DNA of 40,139 nucleotides, from NCBI GenBank assembly GCA_946497585.1, contig CAMMLF010000002.1:1-40139 (forward strand), written 5' to 3'. The notes beneath the pieces are model-generated. The model did not search any database and was not told the DNA's origin. It saw only the letters and a list, made by a program, of their open reading frames with translations. Of the stretch, positions 26,994 to 36,529 are shown piece by piece. The position numbers were made by a program, and so were the translations under genes. The stretch comes from an uncultured Clostridium sp. (GTDB lineage Bacteria; Bacillota; Clostridia; TANB77; CAG-508). The first letter of the stretch is position 1; each line of letters starts with the position of its first letter.

Positions 26994-27072
26994 CTATTCG
27001 GCAGGTTAGGAAATCAAGACTTGGAGGGAAGAATTTTTGAAAAATTAGTGTTAAGTTAGTGGAATTTCCAGG

Positions 27073-27097
27073 CGAACACCTGTTCGGTTTACATAAT
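27073..27097 (+). repeat. Intergenic element copy 1: CGAACACCTGTTCG palindrome plus GTTTACATAAT
   Basis: Perfect CGAAC-N4-GTTCG at 27073-27086, with GTTTACATAAT at 27087-27097. Confidence 0.8.
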
Positions 27098-27187
27098 GTA
27101 TGAAATCCCAAAACTAACCCCGTATCCTTACAGTTTCAAGGGCGTTCGGGCTTTCTATTGAGCCTCTAAGAAAAGAGGCGACACGAC

Positions 27188-27238
27188 CGAACAAACGTGT
27201 CCCAAACAAACGTTCACTTGCAAGGCAAGTTTACATAA
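27188..27238 (+). repeat. Intergenic element copy 2
   Basis: CGAACAAACGTGTC at 27188-27201, CTTGC-AAG-GCAAG hairpin, GTTTACATAA at 27229-27238. Confidence 0.7.
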
Positions 27239-27249
27239 AGTGTTACCAA

Positions 27250-27293
27250 ATGTAATGAACTTGTAACATAATTGTAACAAAAATGTAATAAAA
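27250..27293 (+). repeat. Phased TGTAA(C/T) repeats upstream of promoter A1
   Basis: Four TGTAA(C/T) copies at about 10-12 bp spacing. The 22-mer TTGTAACAAAAATGTAATAAAA (27272-27293) recurs exactly at 29215-29236. Confidence 0.7.
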
Positions 27294-27320
27294 TTTTTTT
27301 AAAAAATTTGTATAAAACTA

Positions 27321-27349
27321 TTGACAAATGTAAATAATAAGTGTATAAT
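27321..27349 (+). promoter_or_regulatory. Class-A promoter A1
   Basis: TTGACA 27321-27326, 17 bp, TATAAT 27344-27349; A/T-rich UP-like tract upstream. Confidence 0.8.
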
Positions 27350-27384
27350 AAGTATGTAAGATAAAGAGAAGGGAGAAAAAGAAA

Positions 27385-27873
27385 ATGAATAAATTTCAAA
27401 TAAAAGAATTTAAAGCACAAACAGAAATATACAATAATAGAATATTTTATATGTTACCAACTTGTGCGTGTTTAGTAAAAGCAAATCGTGGAGAATTAAA
27501 AGAATATAGTTTAAGAATAGCACTAACAGGAGAACAGCCATATTACAAAGACAGCTCAAACCACAAGCTAGATAGCGACATCAATGTAGGGGATAAACAT
27601 ATAAGCGTTAAATCAGGAGAAGCAAGTATAGGATTTATGAAAAACGAAAACTTAGAAGAATATATAGACGAATACCTAAAAGCTGATTATAGTAATACTT
27701 ATATGTATGTAACAGATAACTATGAAGTTTACGAAATGAATAAAGAAGAAATGAAAAAGTTTTTACTAGCAAATACTAGAATAAGCAAAACACAAAATAG
27801 AAGAACAAAACAAATAAAGCTAGAAGCAAGACTAAAAAGAGATACAACGATATGTAAATGGTTAGCAAAATAA
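27385..27873 (+). CDS. Hypothetical protein (162 aa)
   Basis: GGGAG SD. Contains DSDINVGDKHISVKS, a weak resemblance to a PD-(D/E)xK nuclease motif (low confidence). Confidence 0.6.
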   Translation: MNKFQIKEFKAQTEIYNNRIFYMLPTCACLVKANRGELKEYSLRIALTGEQPYYKDSSNHKLDSDINVGDKHISVKSGEASIGFMKNENLEEYIDEYLKADYSNTYMYVTDNYEVYEMNKEEMKKFLLANTRISKTQNRRTKQIKLEARLKRDTTICKWLAK

Positions 27874-27896
27874 GCTAACTATTTACAAAAAAGGTA

Positions 27897-27925
27897 TTGA
27901 CAAAATAAAAAATATATGATAAAAT
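27897..27925 (+). promoter_or_regulatory. Class-A promoter A2
   Basis: TTGACA 27897-27902, 17 bp, TAAAAT 27920-27925, preceded by TGa. Confidence 0.6.
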
Positions 27926-27947
27926 AAAGAAAAAAAGAAGGGGATTG

Positions 27948-28166
27948 ATGAAAATGAGAAAAATGAAAAAAAGAGAAAATAAAATAGTAAGAGGAATAAA
28001 AACATTAGTACAAGGAATACTAGGAACAATAATAATATTAGGAGTATTTACAATGTTAGGAATGAGTGTTGAATGGGTTTGTGCAGATAAAGGAAGATTT
28101 ATACTAGCAATATTCATCTTCTCATATATATTATATAGAATATACAAAAATGAGTTTGAAGATTAG
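27948..28166 (+). CDS. Small membrane protein (about 72 aa, two hydrophobic helices)
   Basis: GAAGGGGA SD; start is ATG 27948 or 27954. Hydrophobic segments GILGTIIILGVFTMLGM and FILAIFIFSYILY. Confidence 0.6.
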   Translation: MKMRKMKKRENKIVRGIKTLVQGILGTIIILGVFTMLGMSVEWVCADKGRFILAIFIFSYILYRIYKNEFED

Positions 28167-28188
28167 CAAATCTTCAAACTTTTTTCTT
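28153..28188 (+). terminator. Rho-independent terminator
   Basis: GTTTGAAGAT (28153-28162) / ATCTTCAAAC (28169-28178), then TTTTTTCTTT. Confidence 0.85.
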
Positions 28189-28253
28189 TATGTAAACCTT
28201 TAGTGTGCGTGCTTGCAGGTTTACATAATATATTAACATAAAGGTTTACATAA
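28187..28253 (+). repeat. Intergenic element copy 3
   Basis: 12-bp perfect inverted repeat (IR): TTATGTAAACCT (28187-28198) / AGGTTTACATAA (28216-28227) around GTGCGTGC. An extra GTTTACATAAT lies at 28243-28253. Confidence 0.85.
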
Positions 28254-28300
28254 TATGTTTCAAATAAAAAAAATAAAATTTAAAATTTTGAATAAAACTA

Positions 28301-28329
28301 TTGACAAATGGAAATAATAGTAGTATAAT
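28301..28329 (+). promoter_or_regulatory. Class-A promoter A3
   Basis: TTGACA 28301-28306, 17 bp, TATAAT 28324-28329. Confidence 0.8.
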
Positions 28330-28361
28330 AAAAGAGAAGTAAGGGAAAGGAGTTGATACAA

Positions 28362-28541
28362 ATGAATAAGTATATTGACCATTTAACAATTACAGAATAT
28401 GAAACAATACAAAAACAATTAAAGAAAAGATTAGAAGAAGAAGAAAAGGCAATGAAAGAAACAGGAAACACAAAGGAATACATTGAATTACGATTTATTT
28501 TAATAAAAATAAAAAGAATTATAGAAAAATATAGAAAATAG
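28362..28541 (+). CDS. Small charged helical protein (59 aa)
   Basis: ATG 28362 with an AAAGGAG SD; the track start is an upstream TTG. Confidence 0.55.
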   Translation: MNKYIDHLTITEYETIQKQLKKRLEEEEKAMKETGNTKEYIELRFILIKIKRIIEKYRK

Positions 28542-28570
28542 TTGACAAATTACCCAATATGTAGTATAAT
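28542..28570 (+). promoter_or_regulatory. Class-A promoter A4 (no ORF before the next promoter)
   Basis: TTGACA 28542-28547 directly abuts the previous stop codon; 17 bp; TATAAT 28565-28570. Confidence 0.7.
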
Positions 28571-28638
28571 AATTATAGCAATAAAGAAAAGACAAAAAAC
28601 AAAAGAAAAAAACTTTTTGAAAAAATACTTAAAAAGTA

Positions 28639-28667
28639 TTGACAAAAAGAAAAAAGTGTAGTATAAT
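28639..28667 (+). promoter_or_regulatory. Class-A promoter A5
   Basis: TTGACA 28639-28644, 17 bp, TATAAT 28662-28667. Confidence 0.8.
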
Positions 28668-28724
28668 ATAAGTATAATAAGACAGATGATAAAGTCTTTA
28701 AAACATAGAAAAGGAGTTGATATT

Positions 28725-29078
28725 ATGGAAAAAATTACTATCGCAAAGAGAAATGAAGAATTAAGAAAGGCAGTTTTCGAAAGGATAATTAAACCAGAAG
28801 TATTAGAAGAATTAAAACAAGTTGCAGGTTCTAAATGGATGATAGACCAAAAATTTATGGAAGAATATTTTCCAGTAAGAGTTGATATTGTAGTTCCAAA
28901 AATTGCAAAAGATGACCCTTTACAAACGGCAGACGACTTTGCAGATGCATATCAACAAGAACAAGAAGAAAAAAGACTTGCAAGAGAAGAAAAACAAAAA
29001 GCAAAAGAAAAGAAAATTGCAAGGGACAAAAAACTTAGAGAACAAAGAAAACTAGCAAAAGAAAAAGGAGAACAATAG
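28725..29078 (+). CDS. Paralog family member 1 (117 aa): N-terminal beta-rich domain plus K/R/E-rich C-terminal helix
   Basis: ATG 28725 with an AAAAGGAG SD. Shares KITIAK..., VRVDIVVPK and KKIARDKK blocks with 33781..34143. Confidence 0.7.
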   Translation: MEKITIAKRNEELRKAVFERIIKPEVLEELKQVAGSKWMIDQKFMEEYFPVRVDIVVPKIAKDDPLQTADDFADAYQQEQEEKRLAREEKQKAKEKKIARDKKLREQRKLAKEKGEQ

Positions 29079-29091
29079 TTCTCCTTTTTTA
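29066..29091 (+). terminator. Rho-independent terminator
   Basis: AGGAGAAC / GTTCTCCT with loop AATA, then TTTTTT; overlaps the stop codon. Confidence 0.85.
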
Positions 29092-29120
29092 TTGTCTTTA
29101 TTTCATTTTATTTTAAACAG

Positions 29121-29195
29121 ATTATGTAAACTTGAAAGTAAACATTTTATGTTAACTCGCGCCCGCACTTTGTGCGTGCTCGTGGTTTACATAAT
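29121..29195 (+). repeat. Intergenic element copy 4
   Basis: ATTATGTAAAC (29121-29131) ... GC-rich GCGCCCGCACTTTGTGCGTGC ... GTTTACATAAT (29185-29195). Confidence 0.85.
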
Positions 29196-29214
29196 AACTT
29201 TCTATAATTTCATT

Positions 29215-29242
29215 TTGTAACAAAAATGTAATAAAAATGTAA
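29215..29242 (+). repeat. Phased TGTAA repeats upstream of promoter A6
   Basis: TGTAAC, TGTAAT and TGTAAA at 10-bp spacing. Includes an exact copy of the 22-mer at 27272-27293. Confidence 0.7.
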
Positions 29243-29261
29243 AGAAAATTTAAAAAAAGTA

Positions 29262-29290
29262 TTGACAAACCCTTTTATAAATGTTATAAT
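29262..29290 (+). promoter_or_regulatory. Class-A promoter A6
   Basis: TTGACA 29262-29267, 17 bp, TGtTATAAT ending at 29290. Confidence 0.8.
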
Positions 29291-29313
29291 ATAAGTATAG
29301 AAAGGAGGAACAA

Positions 29314-29928
29314 ATGAAAAAGTTAGTAGTAATCAATTTGATTTTAATTTTAATCTATTGTATATTACCAAATGAGATACAAAAGAATATCAACGAAACG
29401 GTAGAAAATACAGTTAAAGAAATACAACAAGAAATAATATCAGAAGAACAACCAACAGAAGAACAAAAACAAGTAAGTAATTTGAATATTAGTTTTGATA
29501 TGAATTTGTTGACAAAAAGTAATATAACAATAGAAGAATTACAAAAAGGTTTTGCAAATACTAATATGCAAGGTTTAGAACAATATTTTATCAATGCAGA
29601 AAATGAAACTGGAATAAATGCAATATATCTTGCAGGACTTGCAACTCACGAAAGTGGTTGGAATACAAGTGATTTTGCAAGAGAAAGAAATAACTTGTTT
29701 GGTTGGCAAAGTTACGATAGTAACCTAAATGCGACTAAAAGATTTGCAAGTAAAGAAGAAAGTATAATGACAGTTGCAAGAGCATTGAAAAAAATGTACT
29801 TAAGCGAAAACGGTTGTTATTTTAACGGTTATACAATTTCTGGTATCTCAAAAAGATATGCAAGTGATAAACAACACAACCAAAAAGTTTTCAGAAATAT
29901 GCAAAAAATTGTTGACAAAATAAAATAA
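29314..29928 (+). CDS. GH73-type N-acetylglucosaminidase (peptidoglycan hydrolase) with an N-terminal signal/anchor helix
   Basis: GINAIYLAGLATHESGWNTSDFARERNNLFGW matches the glucosaminidase (GH73) catalytic region. N-terminus is MKKLVVINLILILIYCIL. AAAGGAGG SD. Confidence 0.8.
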   Translation: MKKLVVINLILILIYCILPNEIQKNINETVENTVKEIQQEIISEEQPTEEQKQVSNLNISFDMNLLTKSNITIEELQKGFANTNMQGLEQYFINAENETGINAIYLAGLATHESGWNTSDFARERNNLFGWQSYDSNLNATKRFASKEESIMTVARALKKMYLSENGCYFNGYTISGISKRYASDKQHNQKVFRNMQKIVDKIK

Positions 29929-29940
29929 ATATGTTATAAT
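29912..29940 (+). promoter_or_regulatory. Class-A promoter A7, embedded in the 3' end of the GH73 gene
   Basis: TTGACA 29912-29917, 17 bp, TATAAT 29935-29940. Confidence 0.75.
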
Positions 29941-29975
29941 ATAATTGAAATTAAAAAAGAAAGGATTTGATAGTT

Positions 29976-30218
29976 ATGAGTAGAAAAGAAAAAAGAGAAA
30001 TGGAGAAAACAAGAAAGGAAAGAGAACCAAAAGGAACTTTTCAAAAGTTCGTAAAATTAGTAAAATTAGTTTTATTTATTACAATGTTAGTATTTACATT
30101 TTTAGTAAGTGATAAAATTGCAAATTTTATAATCAATTTAGGAATTGAAAGACTAACAAGAATAGTAAATATGATACTAATTACAGTTGTAACAGGAATT
30201 TACTTTTATAAAAAATAG
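29976..30218 (+). CDS. Small two-helix membrane protein (80 aa; holin-like by size and topology)
   Basis: ATG 29976 with a GAAAGGA SD. A basic N-terminus is followed by LVLFITMLVFTFLV and IVNMILITVVTGIYF. Confidence 0.55.
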   Translation: MSRKEKREMEKTRKEREPKGTFQKFVKLVKLVLFITMLVFTFLVSDKIANFIINLGIERLTRIVNMILITVVTGIYFYKK

Positions 30219-30240
30219 GCGAAAGCCTATTTTTTTATTT
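30215..30240 (+). terminator. Rho-independent terminator
   Basis: ATAGGC-GAAA-GCCTAT followed by TTTTTTT; an A-run upstream makes bidirectional function possible. Confidence 0.8.
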
Positions 30241-30253
30241 TTGTTAGTGTAAA

Positions 30254-30323
30254 GTTATTATGTAAACTTGGCACGCGCGGGCGCCGAACCGAACAAATGT
30301 TTGCGCTTGGTTTACATAATAAC
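30254..30323 (+). repeat. Intergenic element copy 5
   Basis: 14-bp perfect IR: GTTATTATGTAAAC (30254-30267) / GTTTACATAATAAC (30310-30323). It flanks GGCACGCGCGGGCGCC and CGAACAAATGTTTG (30290-30303). Confidence 0.9.
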
Positions 30324-30357
30324 TTACAAATAAATTTAAAAAATTTTGAATATTTAC

Positions 30358-30386
30358 TTGACTTTTGTTTATAATAATGTTATAAT
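30358..30386 (+). promoter_or_regulatory. Class-A promoter A8
   Basis: TTGACT 30358-30363, 17 bp, TATAAT 30381-30386. Confidence 0.75.
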
Positions 30387-30415
30387 AAGAATGTAAAGAG
30401 AAAGGGGAGATAAAA

Positions 30416-30490
30416 ATGTATTTAACAAATAAAGATATAAAAGAAATTGAAGAATTTTTTAAAAAAGACTTGACAAATAAAAATAAATAA
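30416..30490 (+). CDS. Possible 24-aa micro-ORF (MYLTNKDIKEIEEFFKKDLTNKNK)
   Basis: Has its own promoter and an AAAGGGGAG SD 6 nt upstream of the ATG. The next promoter's -35 lies inside its 3' end. May be a gene remnant. Confidence 0.3.
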   Translation: MYLTNKDIKEIEEFFKKDLTNKNK

Positions 30491-30498
30491 TATATAAT
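30470..30498 (+). promoter_or_regulatory. Class-A promoter A9
   Basis: TTGACA 30470-30475, 17 bp, TATAAT 30493-30498. Confidence 0.75.
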
Positions 30499-30527
30499 AT
30501 AGTTACAGAAAGGGAAAGGTGATAATT

Positions 30528-31001
30528 ATGAAAAGAATTTTTATTGATATGGACGGAACAATAGCAAAGTTTAATGTACCAAATGCTTTAAGAAGATTTG
30601 CAACAGAAAAAGGATTTTTTAGAAGACTTGGAGCATATAAAGGAATAGAACATATAAACGAATTAGCAAAAAATAAAGAACAAATTTATATTTTATCAGC
30701 AAGTCCAAATATGTATGCAGATTTAGACAAAAAAAATTGGTTAAGAAGATATTTACCAAATTTACAAGAAAGTCAAATAATAATTTGTAGAAATGGAGAA
30801 AATAAAGCAAAAGTAATTGAAAGAAAATTTAATACAAAAATTACAAAAGATTTTTTCTTGCTAGATGATTATACAAAAAATTTAACAGATTGGGAAAATG
30901 CAGGTGGTACAGGAATAAAAAGAATTACAACAGTTTCAGACAATTCAACAGGAAAATGGAAAGGTTTAATCTTAAAACAATTAGAAGAATTGTATATATA
31001 A
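30528..31001 (+). CDS. HAD-superfamily 5'(3')-deoxyribonucleotidase-like phosphatase
   Basis: Motif I FIDMDGTIA (DxDxT), ILSAS, and FLLDDY (motif IV). The size fits NT5C/T5-Dmp-like enzymes. ATG 30528 with a GGGAAAGG SD. Confidence 0.7.
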   Translation: MKRIFIDMDGTIAKFNVPNALRRFATEKGFFRRLGAYKGIEHINELAKNKEQIYILSASPNMYADLDKKNWLRRYLPNLQESQIIICRNGENKAKVIERKFNTKITKDFFLLDDYTKNLTDWENAGGTGIKRITTVSDNSTGKWKGLILKQLEELYI

Positions 31002-31019
31002 TACAGTTCTTTTTCTTTA
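30987..31019 (+). terminator. Probable terminator (A/T-rich stem)
   Basis: GAATTGTAT / ATACAGTTC with one G-U pair, then TTTTTCTTT; overlaps the stop codon. Confidence 0.55.
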
Positions 31020-31069
31020 TGTAAACCGATAATTATGTAAACTGCGCGTGCGTGGTTGGTTAACATAAT
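31017..31069 (+). repeat. Intergenic element copy 6
   Basis: TTATGTAAAC twice (31017-31026 and 31033-31042), then GCGCGTGCGTGG, then the variant GTTAACATAAT (31059-31069). Confidence 0.85.
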
Positions 31070-31116
31070 CTGTTGCAATAAAATAAAAATTTTTTTTTAA
31101 AAAAATGTATATTTTA

Positions 31117-31146
31117 CTTGACAAATACATATAATAGTAGTATAAT
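31117..31146 (+). promoter_or_regulatory. Class-A promoter A10
   Basis: TTGACA 31117-31122, 18 bp, TATAAT 31141-31146. Confidence 0.75.
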
Positions 31147-31174
31147 AAGTATATAAAGAAAGGGAGGAATTAAA

Positions 31175-31483
31175 ATGGTTTTAAAAACAATAAAAATGAT
31201 AATTAAAATGGAAAATATAGAAAAAGGTTTTAAATTTAAAATGATAAGTTTAGGAATTTTAGAACAAATTGTAAATAGTTATAAAACAATATTAAAATTA
31301 CCTTTTTACTTGATAGGTTTACCATTTTGTTTTATTGGTTGGTTATCTGAACAAATCGCCGACTTATGCAGTTTAGTAATGGGAGTAATTCACGAGATAC
31401 CATATATAAAATTATGTAAAAAGGAAGATAAGGAAAGACTAATAAAAGCAATTAAGGAAAGAAATACTTATAAAGTTTCATAG
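31175..31483 (+). CDS. Small membrane protein (102 aa)
   Basis: GGGAGG SD; hydrophobic core LPFYLIGLPFCFIGWL. Confidence 0.6.
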   Translation: MVLKTIKMIIKMENIEKGFKFKMISLGILEQIVNSYKTILKLPFYLIGLPFCFIGWLSEQIADLCSLVMGVIHEIPYIKLCKKEDKERLIKAIKERNTYKVS

Positions 31484-31500
31484 AAGAAAGGGTGTTGAAA

Positions 31501-31656
31501 ATGTTGACAATTATTTTATCAATTATTGTTTATCGTTCTAATTTAAAAGAATTAGGAAAAGAACAATGTGGGAGTTATTTTGATTATTTTATGGGTTGGT
31601 TATGGGTTATGGTTTTTGAAATTGGTATGATTTTATTGTTTATTTTAGAAGGATAA
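31501..31656 (+). CDS. Small two-helix membrane protein (51 aa; below the ORF-track cutoff)
   Basis: ATG 31501 follows GAAAGGGTG. Translation: MLTIILSIIVYRSNLKELGKEQCGSYFDYFMGWLWVMVFEIGMILLFILEG. Confidence 0.5.
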   Translation: MLTIILSIIVYRSNLKELGKEQCGSYFDYFMGWLWVMVFEIGMILLFILEG

Positions 31657-31683
31657 AAAAATTAAAAAATTTTTAAAAAAGTA

Positions 31684-31712
31684 TTGACAAATAAGAATAA
31701 ATAGTGTATAAT
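31684..31712 (+). promoter_or_regulatory. Class-A promoter A11
   Basis: TTGACA 31684-31689, 17 bp, TATAAT 31707-31712. Confidence 0.8.
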
Positions 31713-31746
31713 AAGTACATAATAAAGAAGAAGGGAATTGATAGAA

Positions 31747-32448
31747 ATGAAAATTGATTTAAGAAAAAAATATTTTATGGTTTTAGATGTTGAAACAACA
31801 AATAATCAAATAGGAGTTAAAAATGCACCAAACGATGGTTTGGTATATGATTTAGGTTTTGGAATTTATGATAAACAAGGCAACGAATATCTTGCAGAAA
31901 GTTTAGTAATAAAGGAAATTTTCTACGATAAAGAACTTATGAATACGGCATATTATAGAAGAAAATTACCAAAATATTATGAAGAAATAAAACAAGGTAA
32001 AAGAAAAGTTGTAACATTATTACAAGCAAGAAAAATGATAAAACAAGCCGTTGAACAATTTAAGGTTGAAGAAGTTTATGCTTACAATGCAAATTTTGAT
32101 TATACAACATTAAACAATACAACAAGACTTATAACAAGTTCTTATGTTCGTTGGTTTTTACCTTATGGTACAAAGGTTTGTGATATATGGCATATTGCTT
32201 GTCAAGTATTAGGAACACAAAAAACTTTTCAATGGGAAAATGTTAGAAATGAAAACGGTAATTTAATAACAAACGCCGAAAGAATGTTTTCTTATATGTT
32301 ACAAGAAGAATTTTCAGAAGAACATACAGGACTTGAAGATACTAGAATTGAGGCACAAATACTTGTTCGTTGTTTTAAATCTCATAAGAAAATAAACAAA
32401 AATATAAATCGTAGTTGTTGGAGAATACCACAAAAGGTTGTTGCTTAA
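31747..32448 (+). CDS. DEDDh (DnaQ-like) 3'-5' exonuclease
   Basis: Exo I MVLDVETT, Exo II YAYNANFDYTTL, Exo III HTGLEDTRIEAQI (H-x4-D). ATG 31747 with an AGAAGGGA SD. Confidence 0.75.
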   Translation: MKIDLRKKYFMVLDVETTNNQIGVKNAPNDGLVYDLGFGIYDKQGNEYLAESLVIKEIFYDKELMNTAYYRRKLPKYYEEIKQGKRKVVTLLQARKMIKQAVEQFKVEEVYAYNANFDYTTLNNTTRLITSSYVRWFLPYGTKVCDIWHIACQVLGTQKTFQWENVRNENGNLITNAERMFSYMLQEEFSEEHTGLEDTRIEAQILVRCFKSHKKINKNINRSCWRIPQKVVA

Positions 32449-32464
32449 CAACCTTTTAATTTTT
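32432..32464 (+). terminator. Rho-independent terminator
   Basis: 11-bp stem AAAAGGTTGTT / AACAACCTTTT with loop GCTT, then AATTTTT; overlaps the stop codon. Confidence 0.85.
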
Positions 32465-32545
32465 ACGTAAACCGAACAAATGTTTGGCAAGTGCGTGCCC
32501 GCAATCGAACATTTGTTTGTGTGCGGGCGAACAAGTTTACATAAT
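32463..32545 (+). repeat. Intergenic element copy 7
   Basis: Variant TTACGTAAAC (32463-32472). CGAACAAATGTTTG (32473-32486). GCCCGCA / TGCGGGC stem around CGAACATTTGTTTG (32506-32519). GTTTACATAAT (32535-32545). Confidence 0.85.
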
Positions 32546-32582
32546 ATGTTGCAAATAAATTTAAAAAATTTGAATAAATCTA

Positions 32583-32611
32583 TTGACTTTTGCAAATAAT
32601 AATAGTATAAT
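32583..32611 (+). promoter_or_regulatory. Class-A promoter A12
   Basis: TTGACT 32583-32588, 17 bp, TATAAT 32606-32611. Confidence 0.75.
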
Positions 32612-32639
32612 ATAAGTAAAGAAAGGGAAGTGATAGAAA

Positions 32640-33191
32640 ATGAAAACAAAAAGATATTTTAAATTGATATTAAAACCTTATAGGGTAATTTTAAAACATT
32701 TTGATAAAGATATTCGTATTTCAATAGGTAAAACTTTTTGTTGTTTTCCACAATTGGAAGAAAAAGAAATAGAAATACCAATTTTTGAAAATAAACTAGG
32801 AAGAAAAGCATTTTATAACAAAATGAATAGAAAACTAAAAGAATATAATATAAACGGCGAATTTAGTAGTGAGATTTTAAGTTTTTTACACGAATTAGGT
32901 CATATTTATACTTATAAGAGAATAAACGAAATAAAATATAATATAGGTACAATGATTATACAAGGTATTCAAGCGAAATTATGCAGTCCAAAACTTTTAG
33001 ATTTCTTTTATAATTGGTATTTTAATTTAAAACTAGAAAAACTTGCAGATAAATGGGCAATGAATTTTATAAAAGAAAATCAAGAACTTGTAGAAAATTG
33101 GCAAATAATGTTACAAGAAAATTATAATAAAGTAATACCAAAATTCGTTGAACATATGAAAGTCAAATACAAACAAGATTTACTTGCATAG
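32640..33191 (+). CDS. Putative zinc metallopeptidase (HExxH)
   Basis: LSFLHELGHIYTY contains HELGH; no other motif recognised. GAAAGGGAAG SD. Confidence 0.55.
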   Translation: MKTKRYFKLILKPYRVILKHFDKDIRISIGKTFCCFPQLEEKEIEIPIFENKLGRKAFYNKMNRKLKEYNINGEFSSEILSFLHELGHIYTYKRINEIKYNIGTMIIQGIQAKLCSPKLLDFFYNWYFNLKLEKLADKWAMNFIKENQELVENWQIMLQENYNKVIPKFVEHMKVKYKQDLLA

Positions 33192-33204
33192 TAAATCTTT
33201 TTTA
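33175..33204 (+). terminator. Rho-independent terminator
   Basis: AAGATTTAC / GTAAATCTT with a 7-nt loop, then TTTT; overlaps the stop codon. Confidence 0.7.
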
Positions 33205-33216
33205 ATAAGTTAAAAT

Positions 33217-33254
33217 CGAACAAATGTTTTTGTGCGTGCGCCAGTTTACATAAT
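33217..33254 (+). repeat. Intergenic element copy 8 (right half only)
   Basis: CGAACAAATGTTTT (33217-33230), GTGCGTGCGCC, GTTTACATAAT (33244-33254). Confidence 0.8.
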
Positions 33255-33301
33255 CACTTACGATAATTTAAAAAATTTTTTAAAAATTTTTGTATAATCT
33301 A

Positions 33302-33330
33302 TTGACAAATGGATATAATAATAGTATAAT
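33302..33330 (+). promoter_or_regulatory. Class-A promoter A13 (orphan: SD-like GAAAGGGAA but no start codon before the next promoter)
   Basis: TTGACA 33302-33307, 17 bp, TATAAT 33325-33330. Confidence 0.7.
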
Positions 33331-33390
33331 AAAGATACAGAAAGGGAACAGACAAAAACAAAAAAAATAAAAAATAATTTTAAAAAACTA

Positions 33391-33419
33391 TTGACAAAAC
33401 TCTAAAACTATGTTATAAT
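33391..33419 (+). promoter_or_regulatory. Class-A promoter A14
   Basis: TTGACA 33391-33396, 17 bp, TGtTATAAT ending at 33419. Confidence 0.8.
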
Positions 33420-33452
33420 AACTTTAGAGTTAAGGAAAGGAAGGAATTGAAA

Positions 33453-33641
33453 ATGGATAAAAAAGAAATGATTAACAAATTAAATAAAATAATGAACGAA
33501 GTTGAGGAGTTACAATTAGAATTGTGTACAATGTTAGTAAAAGATAGTGAAAATCAAGAATTGAATTTTGCAGATAATACACTTGAAAATGCTTTCAATA
33601 ATTTAGTAGACACAGAATACCACTTGAAAAAAAGTTTATAA
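33453..33641 (+). CDS. Small acidic helical protein (62 aa)
   Basis: ATG 33453 with an AAGGAAGGA SD. Confidence 0.55.
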   Translation: MDKKEMINKLNKIMNEVEELQLELCTMLVKDSENQELNFADNTLENAFNNLVDTEYHLKKSL

Positions 33642-33658
33642 AACTTTAAAAAAAACTA

Positions 33659-33687
33659 TTGACAAACAAAAGAAAAAATGATATAAT
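33659..33687 (+). promoter_or_regulatory. Class-A promoter A15
   Basis: TTGACA 33659-33664, 17 bp, TATAAT 33682-33687. It is followed by a leader of about 90 nt with a GTAGG...CCTAC hairpin. Confidence 0.8.
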
Positions 33688-33780
33688 ATAAGTACAGTAA
33701 GGGTAGGGTAAAAAGTTCACTGGTAACCTACGGAAGGAACTCATAAGAAAAATAAATTTAAGGAAGGTTTGGTGATTAGT

Positions 33781-34143
33781 ATGGCAAAATTAACAATAGC
33801 AAAAATCAATGAAATGGCAAGAGAGGTTGCAATGAAGGAAATTGCAGATAACGGCTTAACAAACTTTTTACAAGTAGAAGGTACAAAATTCGCAAAAGAC
33901 TTTACTTTTGAAACACCTGACGGACAAAAAACAAAAACAGTAAGAATTGATATTGTAGTACCAAAATTAGAAGAAGGCGAAAATGCTCAAGTTTTAGCCG
34001 AAGATTACAACTTCAAAATGGAAGAAAAAGCACAAAAAGAAAAAGAGAGAGCAGAGGCAAAGGCTAAAAAAATTGCAAGAGATAAAAAACGCAGAGAAGA
34101 AAATAAAAGAAATATTGTAAAAACAACAGTTGTTGAAGGGTAG
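33781..34143 (+). CDS. Paralog family member 2 (120 aa)
   Basis: ATG 33781. KLTIAKINE, VRIDIVVPK and KKIARDKKRRE blocks align with member 1. Confidence 0.7.
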   Translation: MAKLTIAKINEMAREVAMKEIADNGLTNFLQVEGTKFAKDFTFETPDGQKTKTVRIDIVVPKLEEGENAQVLAEDYNFKMEEKAQKEKERAEAKAKKIARDKKRREENKRNIVKTTVVEG

Positions 34144-34194
34144 TAAATACCCTTCAAGGGCTTGAAATTTAAATAAGAAGGGAATTGATTTATT

Positions 34195-34578
34195 ATGGAT
34201 AAAATGATTTTAACTCAAAGAAATGGTTGTATATGTGATTTAAAAGAAGGACTAAAAGTTCCAAAAAAAGATTGCTTTTATGTAAGTTTAATTCATCAAA
34301 TGGGCGAAAAACTTATAAAAATAGGAATAACAAATAATTTAGCAAGAAGATTTTATGAGCATTTACACAATCCAACTTATGGAAACACAGATATGACAAT
34401 ATTACTTGTAATACCTTGTGCTAGTGAATATGCAGCGAAAAGATTGGAGGATAAAGTAAGAGATTACTTAATCAAATTGGGTTATTATCATTTACCAAAA
34501 GATAGATTTTATATTCCAGATAATGTTCACGAAATTGCAATAAAACACGTTAGAAAAACTTATGTGATAGAATTATAA
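34195..34578 (+). CDS. GIY-YIG / T5orf172-like domain protein (127 aa)
   Basis: FYVSLIHQMGEKLIKIGITNNLARRFYEH resembles the GIY...YIG...R...H core. AGAAGGGA SD. Appears co-transcribed with member 2. Confidence 0.5.
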   Translation: MDKMILTQRNGCICDLKEGLKVPKKDCFYVSLIHQMGEKLIKIGITNNLARRFYEHLHNPTYGNTDMTILLVIPCASEYAAKRLEDKVRDYLIKLGYYHLPKDRFYIPDNVHEIAIKHVRKTYVIEL

Positions 34579-34604
34579 AGAGAACAAATGTTCTCTTTCT
34601 TTGT
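34579..34604 (+). terminator. Rho-independent terminator (also a GAAC-N4-GTTC palindrome)
   Basis: AGAGAAC-AAAT-GTTCTCT, then TTCTTTG. Confidence 0.8.
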
Positions 34605-34617
34605 TGTCCAAAATAAT

Positions 34618-34695
34618 ATTATGTAAAGTTTACATAATTCGGCCCGCGCACAAATGCGCGTGCGGGCACCGGTTTACATAATACCTTTACATAAT
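34618..34695 (+). repeat. Intergenic element copy 9
   Basis: 21-bp palindrome ATTATGTAAAGTTTACATAAT (34618-34638). GC hairpin GCCCGCGCACAAATGCGCGTGCGGGC. GTTTACATAAT (34672-34682). CTTTACATAAT (34685-34695). Confidence 0.85.
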
Positions 34696-34775
34696 AACTT
34701 TACCGTCTCACTACCCTACTTCCGGCTTGCTCGCCGCCGACTCTGTCAAATTTCTTATAGTTTGCGGCCGACCCT

Positions 34776-34899
34776 CAGCAGCTGGACCTAGAACAGCTGG
34801 ATAGCTGGCAGCTGGACCGTACAGCTAGGATTTGTCAGCAGCTGGGTTGTCAGCAGCTGGAACAGCTGGGTTTCAAAAAGCTGGAATTTGCAAACAGCT
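34776..34899 (+). repeat. CAGCTGG iteron-like array
   Basis: Eight AGCTGG and two AGCTA(G/C) copies within about 125 bp, including the tandem 15-mers TGTCAGCAGCTGGGT (34833-34847) and TGTCAGCAGCTGGAA (34848-34862). Lies directly upstream of promoter B1. Confidence 0.85.
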
Positions 34900-34916
34900 A
34901 CAAATTATGCTATAAT
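34888..34916 (+). promoter_or_regulatory. Class-B promoter B1
   Basis: TTGCAA 34888-34893, 17 bp, TATAAT 34911-34916, then the conserved TATTATAGAAA box. Confidence 0.65.
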
Positions 34917-34952
34917 TATTATAGAAATAAAAAAAGAAGGGAGAAATAAAAG

Positions 34953-35294
34953 ATGACAGATTATGCTATATCAATTTGTAATAGAGTAATAATTTGGAAT
35001 GATGATAATCACGAGAGTGAGGTATATTTTAATGGTGAAAAAGCTGGATATTTGGGAGACGAATTAAATTGTATAACAACAGTAGCTGAACGAGCTGCGG
35101 CAGCTGGGCCAAAGCCAACTATTTGTAAGAGAGTTTATATATTTGACTTGTGTGAAGTGATGGACGATGAAGAAGAAAATAAAGAAGATTTTGAAAAATT
35201 AGTAGAGTTCTTTCAAACAACTACAAGATTCACACCAGAACAAGAACAAGCCATATTTAATGAAGACTACAATAAATTATTAGAACTTATATAA
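34953..35294 (+). CDS. Acidic hypothetical protein (113 aa)
   Basis: GAAGGGAG SD; D/E-rich C-terminal half. The coding sequence itself holds three more AGCTG motifs (about 35085-35107). Confidence 0.6.
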   Translation: MTDYAISICNRVIIWNDDNHESEVYFNGEKAGYLGDELNCITTVAERAAAAGPKPTICKRVYIFDLCEVMDDEEENKEDFEKLVEFFQTTTRFTPEQEQAIFNEDYNKLLELI

Positions 35295-35302
35295 TTCAAA
35301 AT

Positions 35303-35331
35303 TTGATTTTTACTAAAAATTATAGTATAAT
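35303..35331 (+). promoter_or_regulatory. Class-B promoter B2 (tRNA operon 1)
   Basis: TTGATT 35303-35308, 17 bp, TATAAT 35326-35331, then ATAATTATAGAAAAAA. Confidence 0.7.
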
Positions 35332-35339
35332 ATAATTAT

Positions 35340-35579
35340 AGAAAAAATAAAAAAATATTTTTTCTAGGAGTCCAAGAATCATTCCTAACAAAGTCCTAAC
35401 TGGTTGGACCGGTAAATTGGAATGTCAGACCTAACTGAAAGAGGAGTTGCTATACTTTACATAGCTGATTAACAACCATAAGTTGTAGTCAAGGCAGTAA
35501 CTTTAATTTATCGCGATACCCTTGACGGATAATGGGACTTCATTCTCGAGTCGTAGCTACTTTGAAGTTCCTTTTCTAT
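35340..35579 (+). ncRNA. Structured non-coding leader of about 220-240 nt ahead of the first tRNA
   Basis: No ORF, and higher GC than the surroundings. Stems GTCAAGG (35488-35494) / CCTTGAC (35519-35525), GGGACTTCA / TGAAGTTCC (one G-U pair), and GCTAT-ACTTTAC-ATAGC. D-arm-like GTCCTAACTGGTTGGAC. Confidence 0.4.
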
Positions 35580-35656
35580 GCACGAGTAGGCAAACTGGCA
35601 AAGCCGCTGGTCTTAGAAACCAGTGTATGAAAGTTCGATTCTTTCCTTGTGCACCA
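35580..35656 (+). tRNA. tRNA with anticodon UAG (Leu codon CUA) but a short 5-nt variable loop
   Basis: Acceptor GCACGAG / CTTGTGC. Anticodon arm CTGGT-CTTAGAA-ACCAG. T arm GAAAG-TTCGATT-CTTTC. A73 and CCA are encoded. D arm has a 3-bp stem. Confidence 0.7.
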
Positions 35657-35697
35657 AACTCTTCACGCATTGAGTATAAATAACTGCGCAATGCCCC

Positions 35698-35733
35698 TGG
35701 CAGAGGGTGGTGAAGTGTCACCGAATATCTGCC
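35698..35733 (+). pseudogene. tRNA-Tyr-like 5'-half relic
   Basis: TGGCAGAGGGTGGTGAAGTGTCACCGAATATCTGCC aligns by eye with the D and anticodon arms of the Tyr tRNA (GGCAGAGGTGGTGAGCTGCACCAGACTGTAAATCTGGC). No T arm is present. Confidence 0.4.
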
Positions 35734-35737
35734 ATAC

Positions 35738-35824
35738 GGATGGATGGCGGAACTGGTAGACGCACAGGACTTAAAATCCTGTATCAGAAATGGTGTGAGG
35801 GTTCGATTCCCTCTCTATCCACCA
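35738..35824 (+). tRNA. tRNA-Leu(UAA)
   Basis: Acceptor GGATGGA / TCTATCC. Anticodon arm CAGGA-CTTAAAA-TCCTG. 15-nt variable arm. T arm GAGGG-TTCGATT-CCCTC. ACCA 3' end. Confidence 0.9.
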
Positions 35825-35942
35825 ATTTAGTTTGCATACCTAATCATATAGATTTTCATATACCATTTTGGGTATATTGAACGCACGGCGCCGTCTGTAA
35901 CAGTTCGATTATCGTCCTGACTACGGCAGCCGGTTTATATAT

Positions 35943-36028
35943 GGGTCAGCGGCAGAGGTGGTGAGCTGCACCAGACTGTAAATCTGGCGTCATTTGACTA
36001 GGAGGTTCGAGTCCTTACTGGCCCACCA
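35943..36028 (+). tRNA. tRNA-Tyr(GUA)
   Basis: Acceptor GGGTCAG / CTGGCCC. Anticodon arm CCAGA-CTGTAAA-TCTGG. Long variable arm. TTCGAGT T loop. ACCA 3' end. Confidence 0.85.
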
Positions 36029-36076
36029 ACAACTCCCTTCATAAGGTAGCTAGAGCCATAAGTCTAGCACTTATAT

Positions 36077-36151
36077 TCCCGGATAGCCTAACTGGTAGGG
36101 CACAGGACTTTGACTCCTGGAGTGTTAGTTCGAGTCTAGCTCCGGGAACCA
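36077..36151 (+). tRNA. tRNA-Gln(UUG)
   Basis: Acceptor TCCCGGA / TCCGGGA (U1-A72). Anticodon arm CAGGA-CTTTGAC-TCCTG. T arm GTTAG-TTCGAGT-CTAGC. ACCA 3' end. Confidence 0.9.
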
Positions 36152-36191
36152 GTCTCATTAGAGACATTCCCTTTCTCAAAGTTATACATTG

Positions 36192-36231
36192 GTCAGCTAC
36201 TTGCAATAGAGCTTGTAGCTGGCTTTTGTTT
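36192..36231 (+). terminator. Terminator of tRNA operon 1
   Basis: CAGCTAC (36194-36200) / GTAGCTG (36215-36221), then GCTTTTGTTT. A small GTCTC-ATTA-GAGAC hairpin lies at 36152-36165. Confidence 0.7.
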
Positions 36232-36234
36232 GCT

Positions 36235-36267
36235 AATAAACCTTTAGGTTTACATAATATGTTTACC
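36235..36267 (+). repeat. Intergenic element copy 10 (degenerate)
   Basis: AAACCTTTAGGTTTACATAATATGTTTAC, with GTTTACATAAT at 36248-36258. Followed by AGCTGG/CAGCTG motifs and GTGCGTGC. Confidence 0.7.
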
Positions 36268-36372
36268 GCTGGAGTAGCTGGATGGCAGCTACACCGCAGC
36301 TGTGCGTGCAATTATACTTCGCCGCTAACTAAAAGTCAAGTCTCAGCAGCTACAACTTATACAAGTTAAAAC

Positions 36373-36492: not shown

Positions 36493-36529
36493 TATTATAG
36501 AAAGAAAAAAGAAAAACAAAAACAAATAT

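Follow-up and report, generated by a model that had tools for sequence, protein, structure and literature searches.

The early cassette array of a large gut phage carries, at the boundaries between its transcription units, a repeated composite element built around an 11–12-mer that we call M1 (ATTATGTAAAC(Y)), together with a GC-rich core. We tentatively interpret these elements as boundary modules resembling the PeSLs of T4-like phages, equipped with putative protein-binding sites analogous to the SPBRE sites of MrpR, and with recombination as a by-product; we would put the probability of this interpretation at about 45%.

The window (the whole 40,139-bp stretch of DNA analysed here) is part of an SPbeta-related siphovirus of ~118.9 kb whose source is gut metagenomes. 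The readable part of the phage amounts to 50 kb of ~119 kb, and locus L157 continues its sequence for another 10 kb. The late genes in the window include the SPbeta domains YonG_N and YonD_N. The late operon lies on the minus strand, with a sigma-factor-like gene at its head (25474–26751), and the early operon on the plus strand, with a divergent region between them at ~27.1–27.2 kb. The early proteins are ORFans, and their cassettes are driven by host RNA polymerase from very strong promoters (Table 1). Seven of the 15 early promoters have an element upstream, and these are the ones with which a new transcription unit starts downstream of a terminator; the other eight lack it.

An earlier, sequence-only reading had counted about 20 copies of the repeat, 13 in one orientation and seven in the other, at ten intergenic loci of the early array, and both counts were confirmed. 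Exact GTTTACATAA is present 16 times in the window, all between 27087 and 36257, whereas 0.25 copies are expected and none of 100 shuffles had more than two. With at most one mismatch in the 11-mer, M1 has 19 copies (13 on the plus strand and six on the minus); counting the degenerate TTTACGTAAAC at 32462 as well makes 20 (13 and seven). All of them lie between 27073 and 36258, from the locus at 27073–27097 through that at 36248–36258. The late operon (1–27000), where the repeat had not been noticed before, contains no exact copy, and matches with one or two mismatches occur there at chance level only; nor was M1 found in the 10 kb of phage sequence that L157 adds or in two 21-kb loci from replication-module relatives. 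Two perfect inverted repeats are real (30252–30267 with 30310–30325, 16 nt, 100%; 28188–28202 with 28239–28253, 15 nt, 100%), as is the shared core motif: GTGCGKGC occurs nine times in the window (0.14 expected), eight of them inside elements.

Table 1. Early promoters and element loci in the window; (+) and (-) give the strand of M1.
Feature	Position	Strand	Description
Near-consensus sigma-70 promoter array (n=15)	27321..33687	+	TTGACA/T-17-TATAAT/TAAAAT; drives small early cassettes
Locus 1a	27073..27097	+	Divergent region; M2 palindrome CGAACACCTGTTCG (27073-27086) abuts M1(+) GTTTACATAAT (27087-27097)
Locus 1b	27186..27239	+	Degenerate M2-like boxes: CGAACAAACGTG at 27188, AAACAAACGTTC at 27204-27215
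Locus 1b M1(+)	27229-27239	+	GTTTACATAAA; 92 nt before -35 box at 27321
Locus 2	28187..28254	+	After terminator 28152-28181; M1(-) 28187-28197; GC core with GTGCGTGC 28205-28212
Locus 2 M1(+)	28219-28229, 28244-28254	+	Last copy starts 57 nt before -35 box at 28301
Locus 3	29121..29195	+	After terminator 29061-29090; M1(-) 29121-29131
Locus 3 hairpin core	29161-29179	+	GCCCGCAC-TTT-GTGCGTGC
Locus 3 M1(+)	29185-29195	+	77 nt before -35 box at 29262
Locus 4	30252..30325	+	After terminator 30210-30235; perfect 16-nt arms AAGTTATTATGTAAAC / GTTTACATAATAACTT
Locus 4 interior			GC core and M2 box CGAACAAATGTTTG 30290-30303
Locus 4 M1(+)	30310	+	Starts 48 nt before -35 box at 30358
Locus 5	31016..31069	+	After NT5C gene end; two M1(-), 31016-31026 and 31032-31042; core TGCGCGTGCGTGG
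Locus 5 M1(+)	31059-31069	+	One-mismatch GTTAACATAAT; 59 nt before -35 box at 31118
Locus 6	32462..32545	+	After terminator 32432-32457; degenerate M1(-) TTTACGTAAAC; M2 32474-32485; GTGCGTGC at 32491
Locus 6, right part			Inverted M2 32507-32518; GTGCGGGC at 32521
Locus 6 M1(+)	32535-32545	+	48 nt before -35 box at 32583
Locus 7	33216..33254	+	Right half only; M2 CGAACAAATGTTTT 33217-33230; GTGCGTGC 33232-33239
Locus 7 M1(+)	33244-33254	+	58 nt before -35 box at 33302
Locus 8	34577..34695 (copies 34618-34695)	+	Terminator 34577-34598 contains GAACAAATGTTC
Locus 8 arms			M1(-) 34618-34628 abuts M1(+) 34628-34638; then GC hairpin GGCCCGCGCAC..GCGTGCGGGC
Locus 8 right copies			M1(+) 34672-34682; M1-like copy 34685-34695, phased 13 nt
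Locus 8, 3' side			CAGCTGG repeats, then promoter without -35 box
Locus 9	36248..36309	+	After tRNA-Gln; lone M1(+) 36248-36258; AGCTGG repeats
Locus 9, 3' part			GTGCGTGC 36302-36309, upstream of promoters without -35 box

Each module holds one to four copies of M1. The terminator-proximal copy is often inverted, and the promoter-proximal copy always reads GTTTACATAAT toward the next promoter. The order within the repeated unit is core, GGTTTACATAATATGTT, A/T tract, promoter. The cores are GC-rich and lineage-specific, and in the lineage of the window they are joined by one or two palindromes that we call M2 (GAAC-N4-GTTY). The element had been said always to follow a terminator and to precede an A/T tract and promoter. 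This is true of seven loci, which come immediately after an intrinsic terminator or a T-tract-bearing gene end and are followed by an A/T tract with a promoter matching TTGACA-17-TATAAT at 11–12 of 12 positions, but not of the two loci at 27.1–27.2 kb or the locus after tRNA-Gln (36248).

When 140 copies of M1 in 12 family loci were surveyed for a strong promoter within 130 nt, 35 had one downstream in the same direction, against one with a promoter upstream and one whose promoter is on the other strand. The most frequent distance from M1 to the -35 box was 48 nt. One alignment (A2) contains a single conserved module running from core through M1 and A/T tract to promoter. As 48–110 nt separate M1 and M2 from the -35 box downstream and neither overlaps a promoter, simple steric repression is not expected. 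The strong polarity of M1 toward genes, its preferred distance from a host-type promoter and the sigma-factor-like gene at the head of the late operon might mean that M1 is itself a promoter, or part of one, used by a phage transcription factor such as the product of that gene, serving a second, later mode of expression. We regard this as very improbable: about 30% of copies face back into the preceding terminator, the late operon is the expected target of a phage sigma factor yet lacks M1, and M1 is one contiguous 11-mer rather than a bipartite signal.

Relatives also show which parts of the module are kept. L029, which was retrieved via a protein and not via the motif, shares only ~1 kb of near-identical DNA and few genes with the window and carries 18 copies of M1, mostly intergenic, in its early array; other relatives have 5–24 copies. 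The M1 arms are exact in divergent relatives, cores are variable and hairpins are not consistent, and the information content is at most ~0.3 bit outside A-TTATGTAAAC-Y. Neither a XerC-type arm nor a 6-bp central region is conserved beside M1, which is a lone arm, and M2 is absent from several M1-bearing relatives (L017, L004, L020 and L095).

A role in RNA processing had been proposed, and the arms and GC core could in principle form an RNA hairpin (an RNase III site, 3' stabiliser or back-up terminator) or a DNA cruciform. The elements do lie just 3' of terminators, and full copies fold far better than shuffles, with z scores of -3.4 (29115–29200), -4.6 (30248–30328), -3.4 (32458–32550) and -4.6 (34610–34705). 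However, the left arm is missing at four of the ten loci, which do not fold (z is +1.4 at 33205–33260 and -0.4 at 27060–27105), and family cores between arms resemble shuffles (median z -0.17; three of 29 below -2). With arm sequence conserved and pairing not, and with no match in an Rfam search, we consider a structural role improbable. MITE- or REP-like selfish elements, another of the earlier proposals, would account for terminal inverted repeats of 10–16 nt, a length of 50–90 bp and an intergenic location; moreover, a Lachnospiraceae MAG has multiple palindromes with the same arms at the 3' ends of genes, and three AT-rich Bacilli MAGs share a conserved one 3' of gyrA. Such an origin is nonetheless hard to credit here, as the interiors differ between all copies in the phage, with nothing alike beyond the arms, no target-site duplication is evident, and the terminator–promoter placement and polarity are unlike random insertion. 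Presence/absence polymorphism of the element itself, which had been named as a sign of mobility, was not seen among relatives that are 96–99.9% identical.

In Bacillus subtilis, the dif site is ACTTCCTAGAATATATATTATGTAAACT (PMC3025954), and its XerD arm is identical to the 11-mer ATTATGTAAAC(T). Similarly, the core box GAACAAATGTTT is identical to the lexA and recA operators of Clostridium difficile, AGGAACAAATGTTTGC and GAGAACAAATGTTTGT, the LexA operator consensus in B. subtilis being GAAC-N4-GTTC (PMC4234289). The density of M2 is 2.20 per kb in the 70 nt around M1 copies and 0.08 per kb in other sequence, a 27-fold enrichment. Judged by letter identity, M1 matches the XerD arm of Firmicutes dif and M2 boxes match LexA operators, which suggests that DNA-binding proteins may dock at the elements. 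This identity with a recombinase arm, the exact M1 copies in relatives and the polarity favour the operator- or stoperator-like binding sites that the sequence-only reading had listed as one option. That reading recognised no described element; the XerD arm, the LexA-type operators and the PeSL and SPBRE/MrpR precedents had been overlooked. No recombinase-like or other candidate binding protein was found in the 50 kb of phage read, and neither tBLASTn of SPbeta YopR and YopP nor phmmer of YopR, YopP and YomM gave a significant match in any of the loci retrieved. Two families of viral contigs have head-to-head M1 palindromes with 5–6-bp spacers close to Xer-family recombinase genes, at distances of 22 bp and 165 bp; for one of these two integrases the adjacency is absent in relatives.

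Several junctions among relatives fall in or at elements, and thus the proposed role in cassette shuffling gains support. A deletion of 29200–30302 in L027 joins two elements (locus 3 on the left, locus 4 on the right) within ~12 nt of M1, L034 has a 174-bp replacement at locus 5 (31007–31031), and L029 has a mosaic boundary at locus 6, its identity being 96% up to 32462 and 66% beyond. In L025, the junction of a deletion of 33428–33627 lies between promoter copies without M1. L021 has its cassettes in another order than the window, and complete modules, including A/T tract and promoter, are 70–80% alike between cassettes. The junctions at elements suggest that the repeats are crossover points for cassette swapping.

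A Xer-family recombinase, of host or phage, might act on pairs of M1, perhaps as folded hairpins like integron attC or CTX-phage attP, so that early cassettes are excised, inserted and reordered as in pdif modules or integrons, with the LexA boxes providing an SOS link. M1 matches a Xer arm, the elements have conserved ends and variable centres and bracket single-gene cassettes, and the L021 order, the L027 junction and the palindromes beside recombinase genes would all fit, as would the known LexA control of integron recombination (cited in PMC4234289). The chance that this is the mechanism seems small, however. The canonical 11-6-11 site is absent from the window, arms are tail-to-tail around cores of 16–62 nt with a single arm at four loci, the ends agree with attC RYYYAAC/GTTRRRY only at AAC/GTT, no recombinase gene was seen in the 50 kb read, and the junctions, one of them between promoter copies, fit homologous recombination equally well.

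Homologous exchange alone might also be enough, the modules being purely cis-acting cassettes of the PeSL type that have no dedicated binder, retain the 11-mer only as part of a terminator/promoter module that recombination between cassettes spreads and homogenises, and are of benefit through modular gene exchange. The likeness of entire modules between cassettes and the L025 junction agree with this, and known PeSLs act alike (PMC4122927, PMC2839356). We nevertheless think it rather unlikely, because M1 is invariant while the remainder of the module, core included, diverges among lineages, because extra, inverted and 13–25-nt tandem copies of M1 stand outside promoter modules, and because chance alone would have to explain why two modules match known protein sites exactly.

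Boundary modules with protein-binding sites, the reading that we prefer, have precedents on both counts. The master repressor of SPbeta, MrpR, is a protein of the tyrosine-recombinase fold that binds to SPBRE repeats located in some ten intergenic regions of the early part of that phage (PMC10516654). Just as MrpR/YopR acts on its own repeated element in SPbeta, the window has repeated M1 in its early intergenic loci, although the SPBRE consensus that we derived is a different sequence, agreeing with M1 at eight of 11 positions. The PeSLs of T4-like phages, as sites of cassette exchange to which the modules are likened, are a precedent for cassette recombination (PMC4122927).

In this ~119-kb SPbeta-related gut phage, the modules separate the transcription units of the early cassette array in the order intrinsic terminator, M1 copies and core (with or without M2), A/T tract and consensus sigma-70 promoter. 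M1 would be the docking site for a Xer-type DNA-binding protein of the tyrosine-recombinase fold, which could be the XerD of the host or a regulator encoded by the phage and resembling MrpR/YopR, and M2 may be bound by LexA or a LexA-like dimer. Proteins at each terminator-to-promoter junction would regulate the very strong early promoters or insulate them, perhaps through repression by bridging or a link to the SOS response. Finally, because they are repeated, the modules may also be the sites at which cassettes are gained, lost and rearranged through homologous exchange.

The element that recurs between the early genes of this phage is built around M1, a conserved 11-12-mer that reads toward the next promoter in its M1(+) orientation and is inverted as M1(-). 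As the exact sequence GTTTACATAA it occurs 16 times in the window (0.25 expected), always between 27087 and 36257; allowing the 11-mer one mismatch gives 19 copies (13 plus, 6 minus), and a degenerate copy at 32462 makes 20. These copies are grouped in ten intergenic loci, all within the early array. The sequence-only reading had counted about 20 copies at ten loci, with perfect inverted repeats, and all of this holds; the motif that it saw shared among the GC-rich cores is enriched 60-fold (GTGCGKGC, 9 against 0.14 expected). It had noticed no element in the late operon, which indeed contains no exact GTTTACATAA copy, and the wider scan that it proposed found M1 absent from the next 10 kb of the same phage and from two 21-kb stretches of related replication module.

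At seven loci the parts follow one order: an intrinsic terminator or a T tract at a gene end, then M1(-) (ATTATGTAAAC), a GC-rich core of 16-62 nt, M1(+) (GTTTACATAAT), an A/T tract and a consensus promoter. The constant part is the promoter-proximal M1, and the left arm is missing at four loci. Among 140 M1 copies at 12 family loci, a strong promoter lies within 130 nt downstream and in the same direction for 35, with one exception in which the promoter is upstream and one in which it is on the opposite strand; in the same loci, M1 most often stands 48 nt before the -35 box. Helical phasing of M1 against the -35 box is suggestive only, as the Rayleigh test gave p ~3e-4 to 1e-3 at 10.5-11 bp over 35 non-independent sites but 0.1-0.18 on unique distances. 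The early genes are driven by 15 near-perfect TTGACA-17-TATAAT promoters, 12 of which match at 12 of 12 positions, and that the element is instead a promoter for a phage factor seems very improbable. It is found only where a promoter begins a new transcription unit behind a terminator, eight internal promoters being without it, and thus tracks unit boundaries rather than promoters as such. Another motif, ATCCCAAAAC / GTTTTGGGAT, lies beside M1 and M2 (the palindrome described below) in the window and in relatives (Table).

M1 stays exact while everything around it changes, which argues for sequence-specific recognition. For example, the contig L029, retrieved through an identical 233-aa protein and not through the motif, shares little else with the window and has 18 exact M1 copies, mainly intergenic in its own early array. 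Similarly, a 118-kb relative with ~75-80% protein identity (its two ends are L010 and L021) and the further relatives L012, L015, L017, L014 and L072 have the same architecture with another gene order and other cores. Apart from M2, the GC-rich core is lineage-specific, reading GTGCGTGC in the window, CCGGCGCG in L021 and CTACGGTG in L017. The sequence-only reading had offered a MITE, given the terminal inverted repeats, but the interiors all differ, no target-site duplication is evident, and the elements occupy the same sites in all of the 96-99.9% identical relatives, with no presence/absence polymorphism among them; a mobile element of this type is highly unlikely.

The conserved unit is A-TTATGTAAAC-Y, outside which no position exceeds 0.36 bit, and ATTATGTAAACT matches, letter for letter, the half of the Bacillus subtilis dif site (ACTTCCTAGAATATATATTATGTAAACT; PMC3025954) that XerD binds. 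The full ATTATGTAAACT, that is the exact 11-mer of the XerD arm, TTATGTAAACT, with an A before it, is present three times in the window; most other M1 copies either have a C after TTATGTAAAC or differ at the first T. No XerC-type inverted arm or 6-8-bp central region was found in the 30 nt on the TTAT side (at most 0.36 bit per position), which reads GTaAAsttA, a direct and not an inverted half-repeat, and the window has no head-to-head M1 pair with a 5-8-nt spacer. Lacking a conserved central region and a second inverted arm, the M1 sites are thus lone half-sites and not dif sites. Passages in the literature on XerD-binding sites (XDS) describe B. subtilis XerD as binding these dif-like sites without recombining them and as unloading SMC complexes (PMC11840125, PMC8357415, PMC12322038), and an artificial XDS array as halting Smc-ScpAB translocation (PMC11840125, from Karaboja et al. 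2021). M1 resembles them as an XerD-half sequence and is a putative XerD-binding site, but the M1 sites are phage-borne and clustered at promoters, not at a replication terminus.

A second core module in the window's lineage is M2, CGAAC-N4-GTTYG, and 27-35 kb holds seven GAAC-N4-GTTY boxes; for RAAC-N4-GTTY, 4.6 occurrences were expected and 13 found. Across the family, M2 has a density of 2.20 per kb within 70 nt of M1 and 0.08 per kb elsewhere (27-fold), and its arms are kept while the N4 varies. CGAACAAATGTTTG, CGAACACCTGTTCG and similar boxes fit the Gram-positive LexA consensus (the Cheo box, GAAC-N4-GTTC/T), and the commonest form, the 12-mer GAACAAATGTTT, is identical to the lexA and recA operators of C. 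difficile. These LexA operators have been verified experimentally, and the B. subtilis consensus is GAAC-N4-GTTC (PMC4234289). Unlike a LexA operator, M2 lies 67-247 nt upstream of the next -35 box, not over or adjoining the promoter, and is optional among relatives. The palindrome also tips two terminator hairpins (29070, 34582).

Integron attC sites and the pdif sites of Acinetobacter share with the array single-gene cassettes, inverted-repeat bounds, conserved ends and variable centres; they are recognised by Xer-related tyrosine recombinases, and integron recombination is LexA-controlled. However, the phage array has no integrase or attI and each cassette has its own promoters and terminators; the phage ends are off the attC consensus, and complete XerC/XerD sites are absent. 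A bolder reading, which we consider unlikely, is that the ~20 lone, XDS-like XerD half-sites and the LexA operators recruit host chromosome-maintenance proteins. Either XerD at each cassette boundary would unload or block SMC-type loop extruders (host condensin or an SMC-family defence), with LexA tying early expression to the SOS state, or an Xer-family recombinase would exchange early anti-host cassettes in a phage-borne integron- or pdif-like system. Neither cultured phages nor the literature searched yielded this composite, an exact XerD half-site with LexA operators at every terminator-promoter junction; if proteins do dock on it, it would be the first repeated control element of this kind to join, literally, the XerD half-site of the host to LexA operators.

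A structural RNA or DNA hairpin has also to be considered, an RNA structure being among the roles that had been offered. Window copies with the complete inverted repeat fold well (z -3.4 to -4.6 against shuffles), but partial copies do not fold, the cores are no better than shuffles (median z -0.17, with 3 of 29 below -2), and Rfam matched only tRNAs, with no RNA family at the element. We regard a structural role of this kind as improbable.

The kind of element is already known: repeated intergenic regulatory modules occur in phage early regions as PeSLs, SPBRE and stoperators. The stoperators of Cluster A mycobacteriophages are many short asymmetric sites in short intergenic regions, biased in orientation relative to transcription, which stop elongation within transcription units and are spread genome-wide. 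M1 is also many-copy, short, asymmetric, intergenic and orientation-biased, but its place is in the early array only, after one unit's terminator and before the promoter of the next. SPBRE of the Bacillus phage SPbeta is a repeated intergenic element of about ten early regions, where MrpR/YopR, the master repressor, binds it; this protein has the fold of a tyrosine recombinase but no catalytic activity (PMC10516654). The ten M1 loci of the present SPbeta-type genome are comparable in number and position, and M1 is itself a recombinase-arm sequence as SPBRE is the site of a recombinase-fold repressor. As derived here from the SPBc2 record, SPBRE is ACAAATACAAAWAATATGTATAT; M1 agrees with its ATATGTATAT core at 8 of 11 positions, A-TATGTA-A being common to both, and SPbeta has two M1 copies in 100 kb. 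SPBRE and M1 are different sites. Furthermore, SPBRE is a single site near or inside a promoter or 5' UTR, whereas M1 stands 48-92 nt upstream and is often paired and inverted. Searches for YopR, YopP and YomM (tBLASTn / phmmer) gave no match in the window, the following 10 kb (L157) or the relatives, with 50 kb of the 118.9-kb phage covered.

The promoter-early stem-loop (PeSL) motifs of T4-like phages show the junction behaviour seen in the window's relatives (PMC2839356, Arbiol et al. 2010; PMC4122927, Comeau et al. 2014). In both systems, small composite terminator/early-promoter repeats flank small, mainly ORFan early genes of a hyperplastic region, and indel or replacement junctions of close relatives lie inside the repeats; here, seven loci between small early ORFs repeat the order of a stem-loop terminator (or T-tract gene end) and then a host-type early promoter. 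PeSLs belong to T4-like myoviruses of Gram-negative hosts, whereas this is an SPbeta-related siphovirus with a low-GC Gram-positive-type host and sigma-A consensus promoters, and the invariant 11-mer (direct and inverted) and the LexA-type palindrome do not appear in PeSL descriptions.

Among the relatives, L027 lacks 29200-30302, and with it the genes for the glucosaminidase and an 83-aa protein, its junction being ~12 nt or less from the M1(+) of two elements; in L034 a 174-bp mini-cassette replaces 31007-31031, beside M1(-); and the identity of L029 falls from 96% up to 32462 to 66% beyond. The L025 deletion joins two promoter copies without M1. The recombination hotspot proposed in the sequence-only reading is thus borne out in that end points in L027, L034 and L029 do fall at elements, but not in any significant excess over the expectation for intergenic DNA generally. 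As elements make up ~30% of intergenic DNA, the pattern fits recombination between any repeated regulatory sequence, and a special hotspot is not proven. That the elements are purely cis-acting recombination modules, with which these junctions would agree, is doubtful beside an M1 whose constancy suggests a recognising factor. True site-specific recombination of cassettes, toward which the L027 junction might point, is quite unlikely with sites that are lone half-sites.

Our preferred reading, to which we assign a probability of roughly 0.45, is that these are PeSL-like boundary modules. M1 would dock a protein of Xer-type fold, either host XerD or a phage MrpR-like regulator, and M2 would dock LexA or a LexA-like dimer; at these putative binding sites the proteins would control or insulate the very strong early promoters, and cassette exchange would follow from the repetition of the modules. 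Weighing against an operator function are the position of the M1/M2 sites, 48-110 nt upstream of the -35 box, and the dispensability of M2 among relatives. As to candidate binders, the first early protein is without a PDB relative. A family of four small paralogues combines two helices with a beta hairpin and a long C-terminal helix rich in Lys and Glu, and its members share the motifs VRIDIVVPK and KKIARDKK; its AlphaFold model (pLDDT 73, pTM 0.38) and sequence gave no Pfam, PHROG or PDB-fold match.

The M1 arm is not private to this phage; its occurrence in bacterial MAGs and viral contigs points to a widely used recognition sequence in Firmicutes and mobile elements. Three low-GC 'Bacilli' MAGs from rabbit gut have a perfect 44-bp M1-arm palindrome, TTATGTAAACCAATTATTTCCCGGGAAATAATTGGTTTACATAA, directly downstream of gyrA, between gyrA and dnaX. 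In the Lachnospiraceae MAG RUG12864 (55-60% GC) a near-perfect 57-bp palindrome with M1 arms is present in multiple copies at the 3' ends of housekeeping genes and resembles a REP- or MITE-like element. Head-to-head M1 pairs with a 5-8-nt spacer, the canonical geometry of tyrosine-recombinase core sites, occur in 14 viral contigs. In three of these an Xer-family recombinase gene is near the pair, at 22 bp in L163 and at 165 bp in L165 and L168, and the PDB entries most closely related to these recombinases are XerC-like, XerA and XerD. Such adjacency is anecdotal support for the Xer link, and a general association of M1 palindromes with recombinases was rejected, the relatives of the L165 integrase being integrated prophages without the palindrome. 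phi29-like contigs of ~15 kb, with a protein-primed type-B DNA polymerase, carry an M1 palindrome with a 7-nt spacer ~210-260 bp from their ends, and one of 15,233 bp (L166/L167) has it at both ends, in both terminal repeats. In a Tissierellia MAG, five head-to-head GGTTTACATAA-N6-TTATGTAAACC palindromes, partly in 97-bp tandem repeats, precede a small ORF and the genes for a Fur-family regulator and a rubrerythrin. Dense M1 arrays are also found in other viral contigs, for example a 182-kb IMG/VR contig (L195) with ten M1 or M1-like copies in one orientation, spaced 13-36 nt over ~170 bp, which resemble iterons.

The phage genome, of ~118.9 kb, recurs in gut metagenomes in contigs of 118,923 to 118,995 bp that are circular permutations of one another, and the window covers about a third of it. 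Its late operon, a minus-strand block (1-26751), encodes portal, terminase, capsid-region and tape measure proteins, with a sigma-factor-like protein at its head, and its products include the SPbeta domains YonG_N and YonD_N. The tape measure protein, of 3,257 aa, implies an exceptionally long tail (the SPbeta YomI gene has 6,858 bp, ~2,285 aa), and the phrog_5767 match at the operon head suggests late transcription by a phage sigma factor; in SPbeta that task is ascribed to the RNA polymerase YonO. Among cultured phages the closest relatives are large siphoviruses infecting Enterococcus, Lactococcus and Bacillus, with a portal identity of ~28%. No DNA is shared with cultured phages by megablast of 27000-36400, and one module compared by blastn with 50,697 phage records, like that megablast, matched only promoter-like fragments. 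Related contigs are binned with low-GC 'Bacilli' and 'Mollicutes' MAGs, and in IMG/VR the next module of the phage has relatives at 60% identity only.

On the plus strand, 27.3-35.3 kb holds small genes, mainly ORFans, the only recognisable products (Pfam and PHROGs) being a glucosaminidase, an NT5C 5'-deoxynucleotidase and a T5orf172 protein. No early gene is conserved more widely in the family than that of a 233-aa protein, which recurs unchanged in 218 assembly blocks and with 65% identity in L012 and L015; this protein has DEDD-type exonuclease motifs (by eye) and a sole family match to phrog_20187, of unknown function. The early array is followed by 13 clustered tRNA genes, where relatives of 95-99% identity differ in inserted PDDEXK_5 and HNH_3 genes; this looks like homing-endonuclease traffic. 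There is also a second promoter class without a -35 box, (TG)nTATAATWATTATAGWAA (13 matches against 0.8 expected), found in L021, L014 and L017 as well; tandem CAGCTGG/AGCTGG repeats (CAGCTGG, 11 against 0.9 expected) precede some of these. From their sequence, they look like middle promoters with an activator-binding array. Finally, a low-complexity region between convergent gene blocks, partly called as a 178-aa gene in public assemblies and holding the end of a 118,995-bp contig (L159), may serve as an origin or a terminus, or have to do with packaging.

Positions of features in the window and in other loci
Feature	Sequence	Position	Remark
Full ATTATGTAAACT arm	window	29121, 30257, 31032	
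ATCCCAAAAC / GTTTTGGGAT motif	window	27103-27115	divergent late/early control region
ATCCCAAAAC / GTTTTGGGAT motif	L012	5190-5210, 6620-6690	
Tape measure gene	window	1485-11258 (-)	PhageMin_Tail
First late-operon gene	window	25474-26751 (-)	phrog_5767 (phage sigma-factor family), E 2.7e-26
233-aa early protein	window	31747-32448	
Four paralogues	window	28725-29078, 33781-34143, 37827-38162, 38214-38570	
Promoters without -35 box	window	34779-34927, 35322-35344, 36262-36503, 37165-37187, 37540-37564, 37690-37711, 39215-39240(-)	
CAGCTGG/AGCTGG repeats	window	34779-34869, 36262-36355	
13-tRNA cluster	window	35580-37518	
13-tRNA cluster	L025	15079-15956	
13-tRNA cluster	L027	14099-16350	
Low-complexity region	window	39300-40139	~800 bp, 20% GC, strongly T-skewed
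gyrA-side palindrome	L107	4082-4125	
gyrA-side palindrome	L120	3555-3598	
gyrA-side palindrome	L151	2199-2242, 2887-2930	
57-bp palindrome	L051, L066, L077, L091, L096, L100, L129		RUG12864
phi29-like palindrome	L166	9953-9979	
phi29-like palindrome	L167	209-235	
phi29-like palindrome	L170	13791-13817	
Five palindromes	L116	1066-1465	Tissierellia MAG
M1 cluster	L195	280-450	

If proteins do dock at these elements, this would be the second independent large Firmicutes phage, after the case of SPBRE and MrpR, in which a recombinase-type protein controls the early region through a repeated intergenic element. Regardless of binding, the elements explain the gain, loss and reordering of early ORFan cassettes, which are likely to be host-takeover and anti-defence genes, in a very abundant gut phage lineage, and they extend the PeSL principle from T4-like phages to Gram-positive-type siphoviruses.
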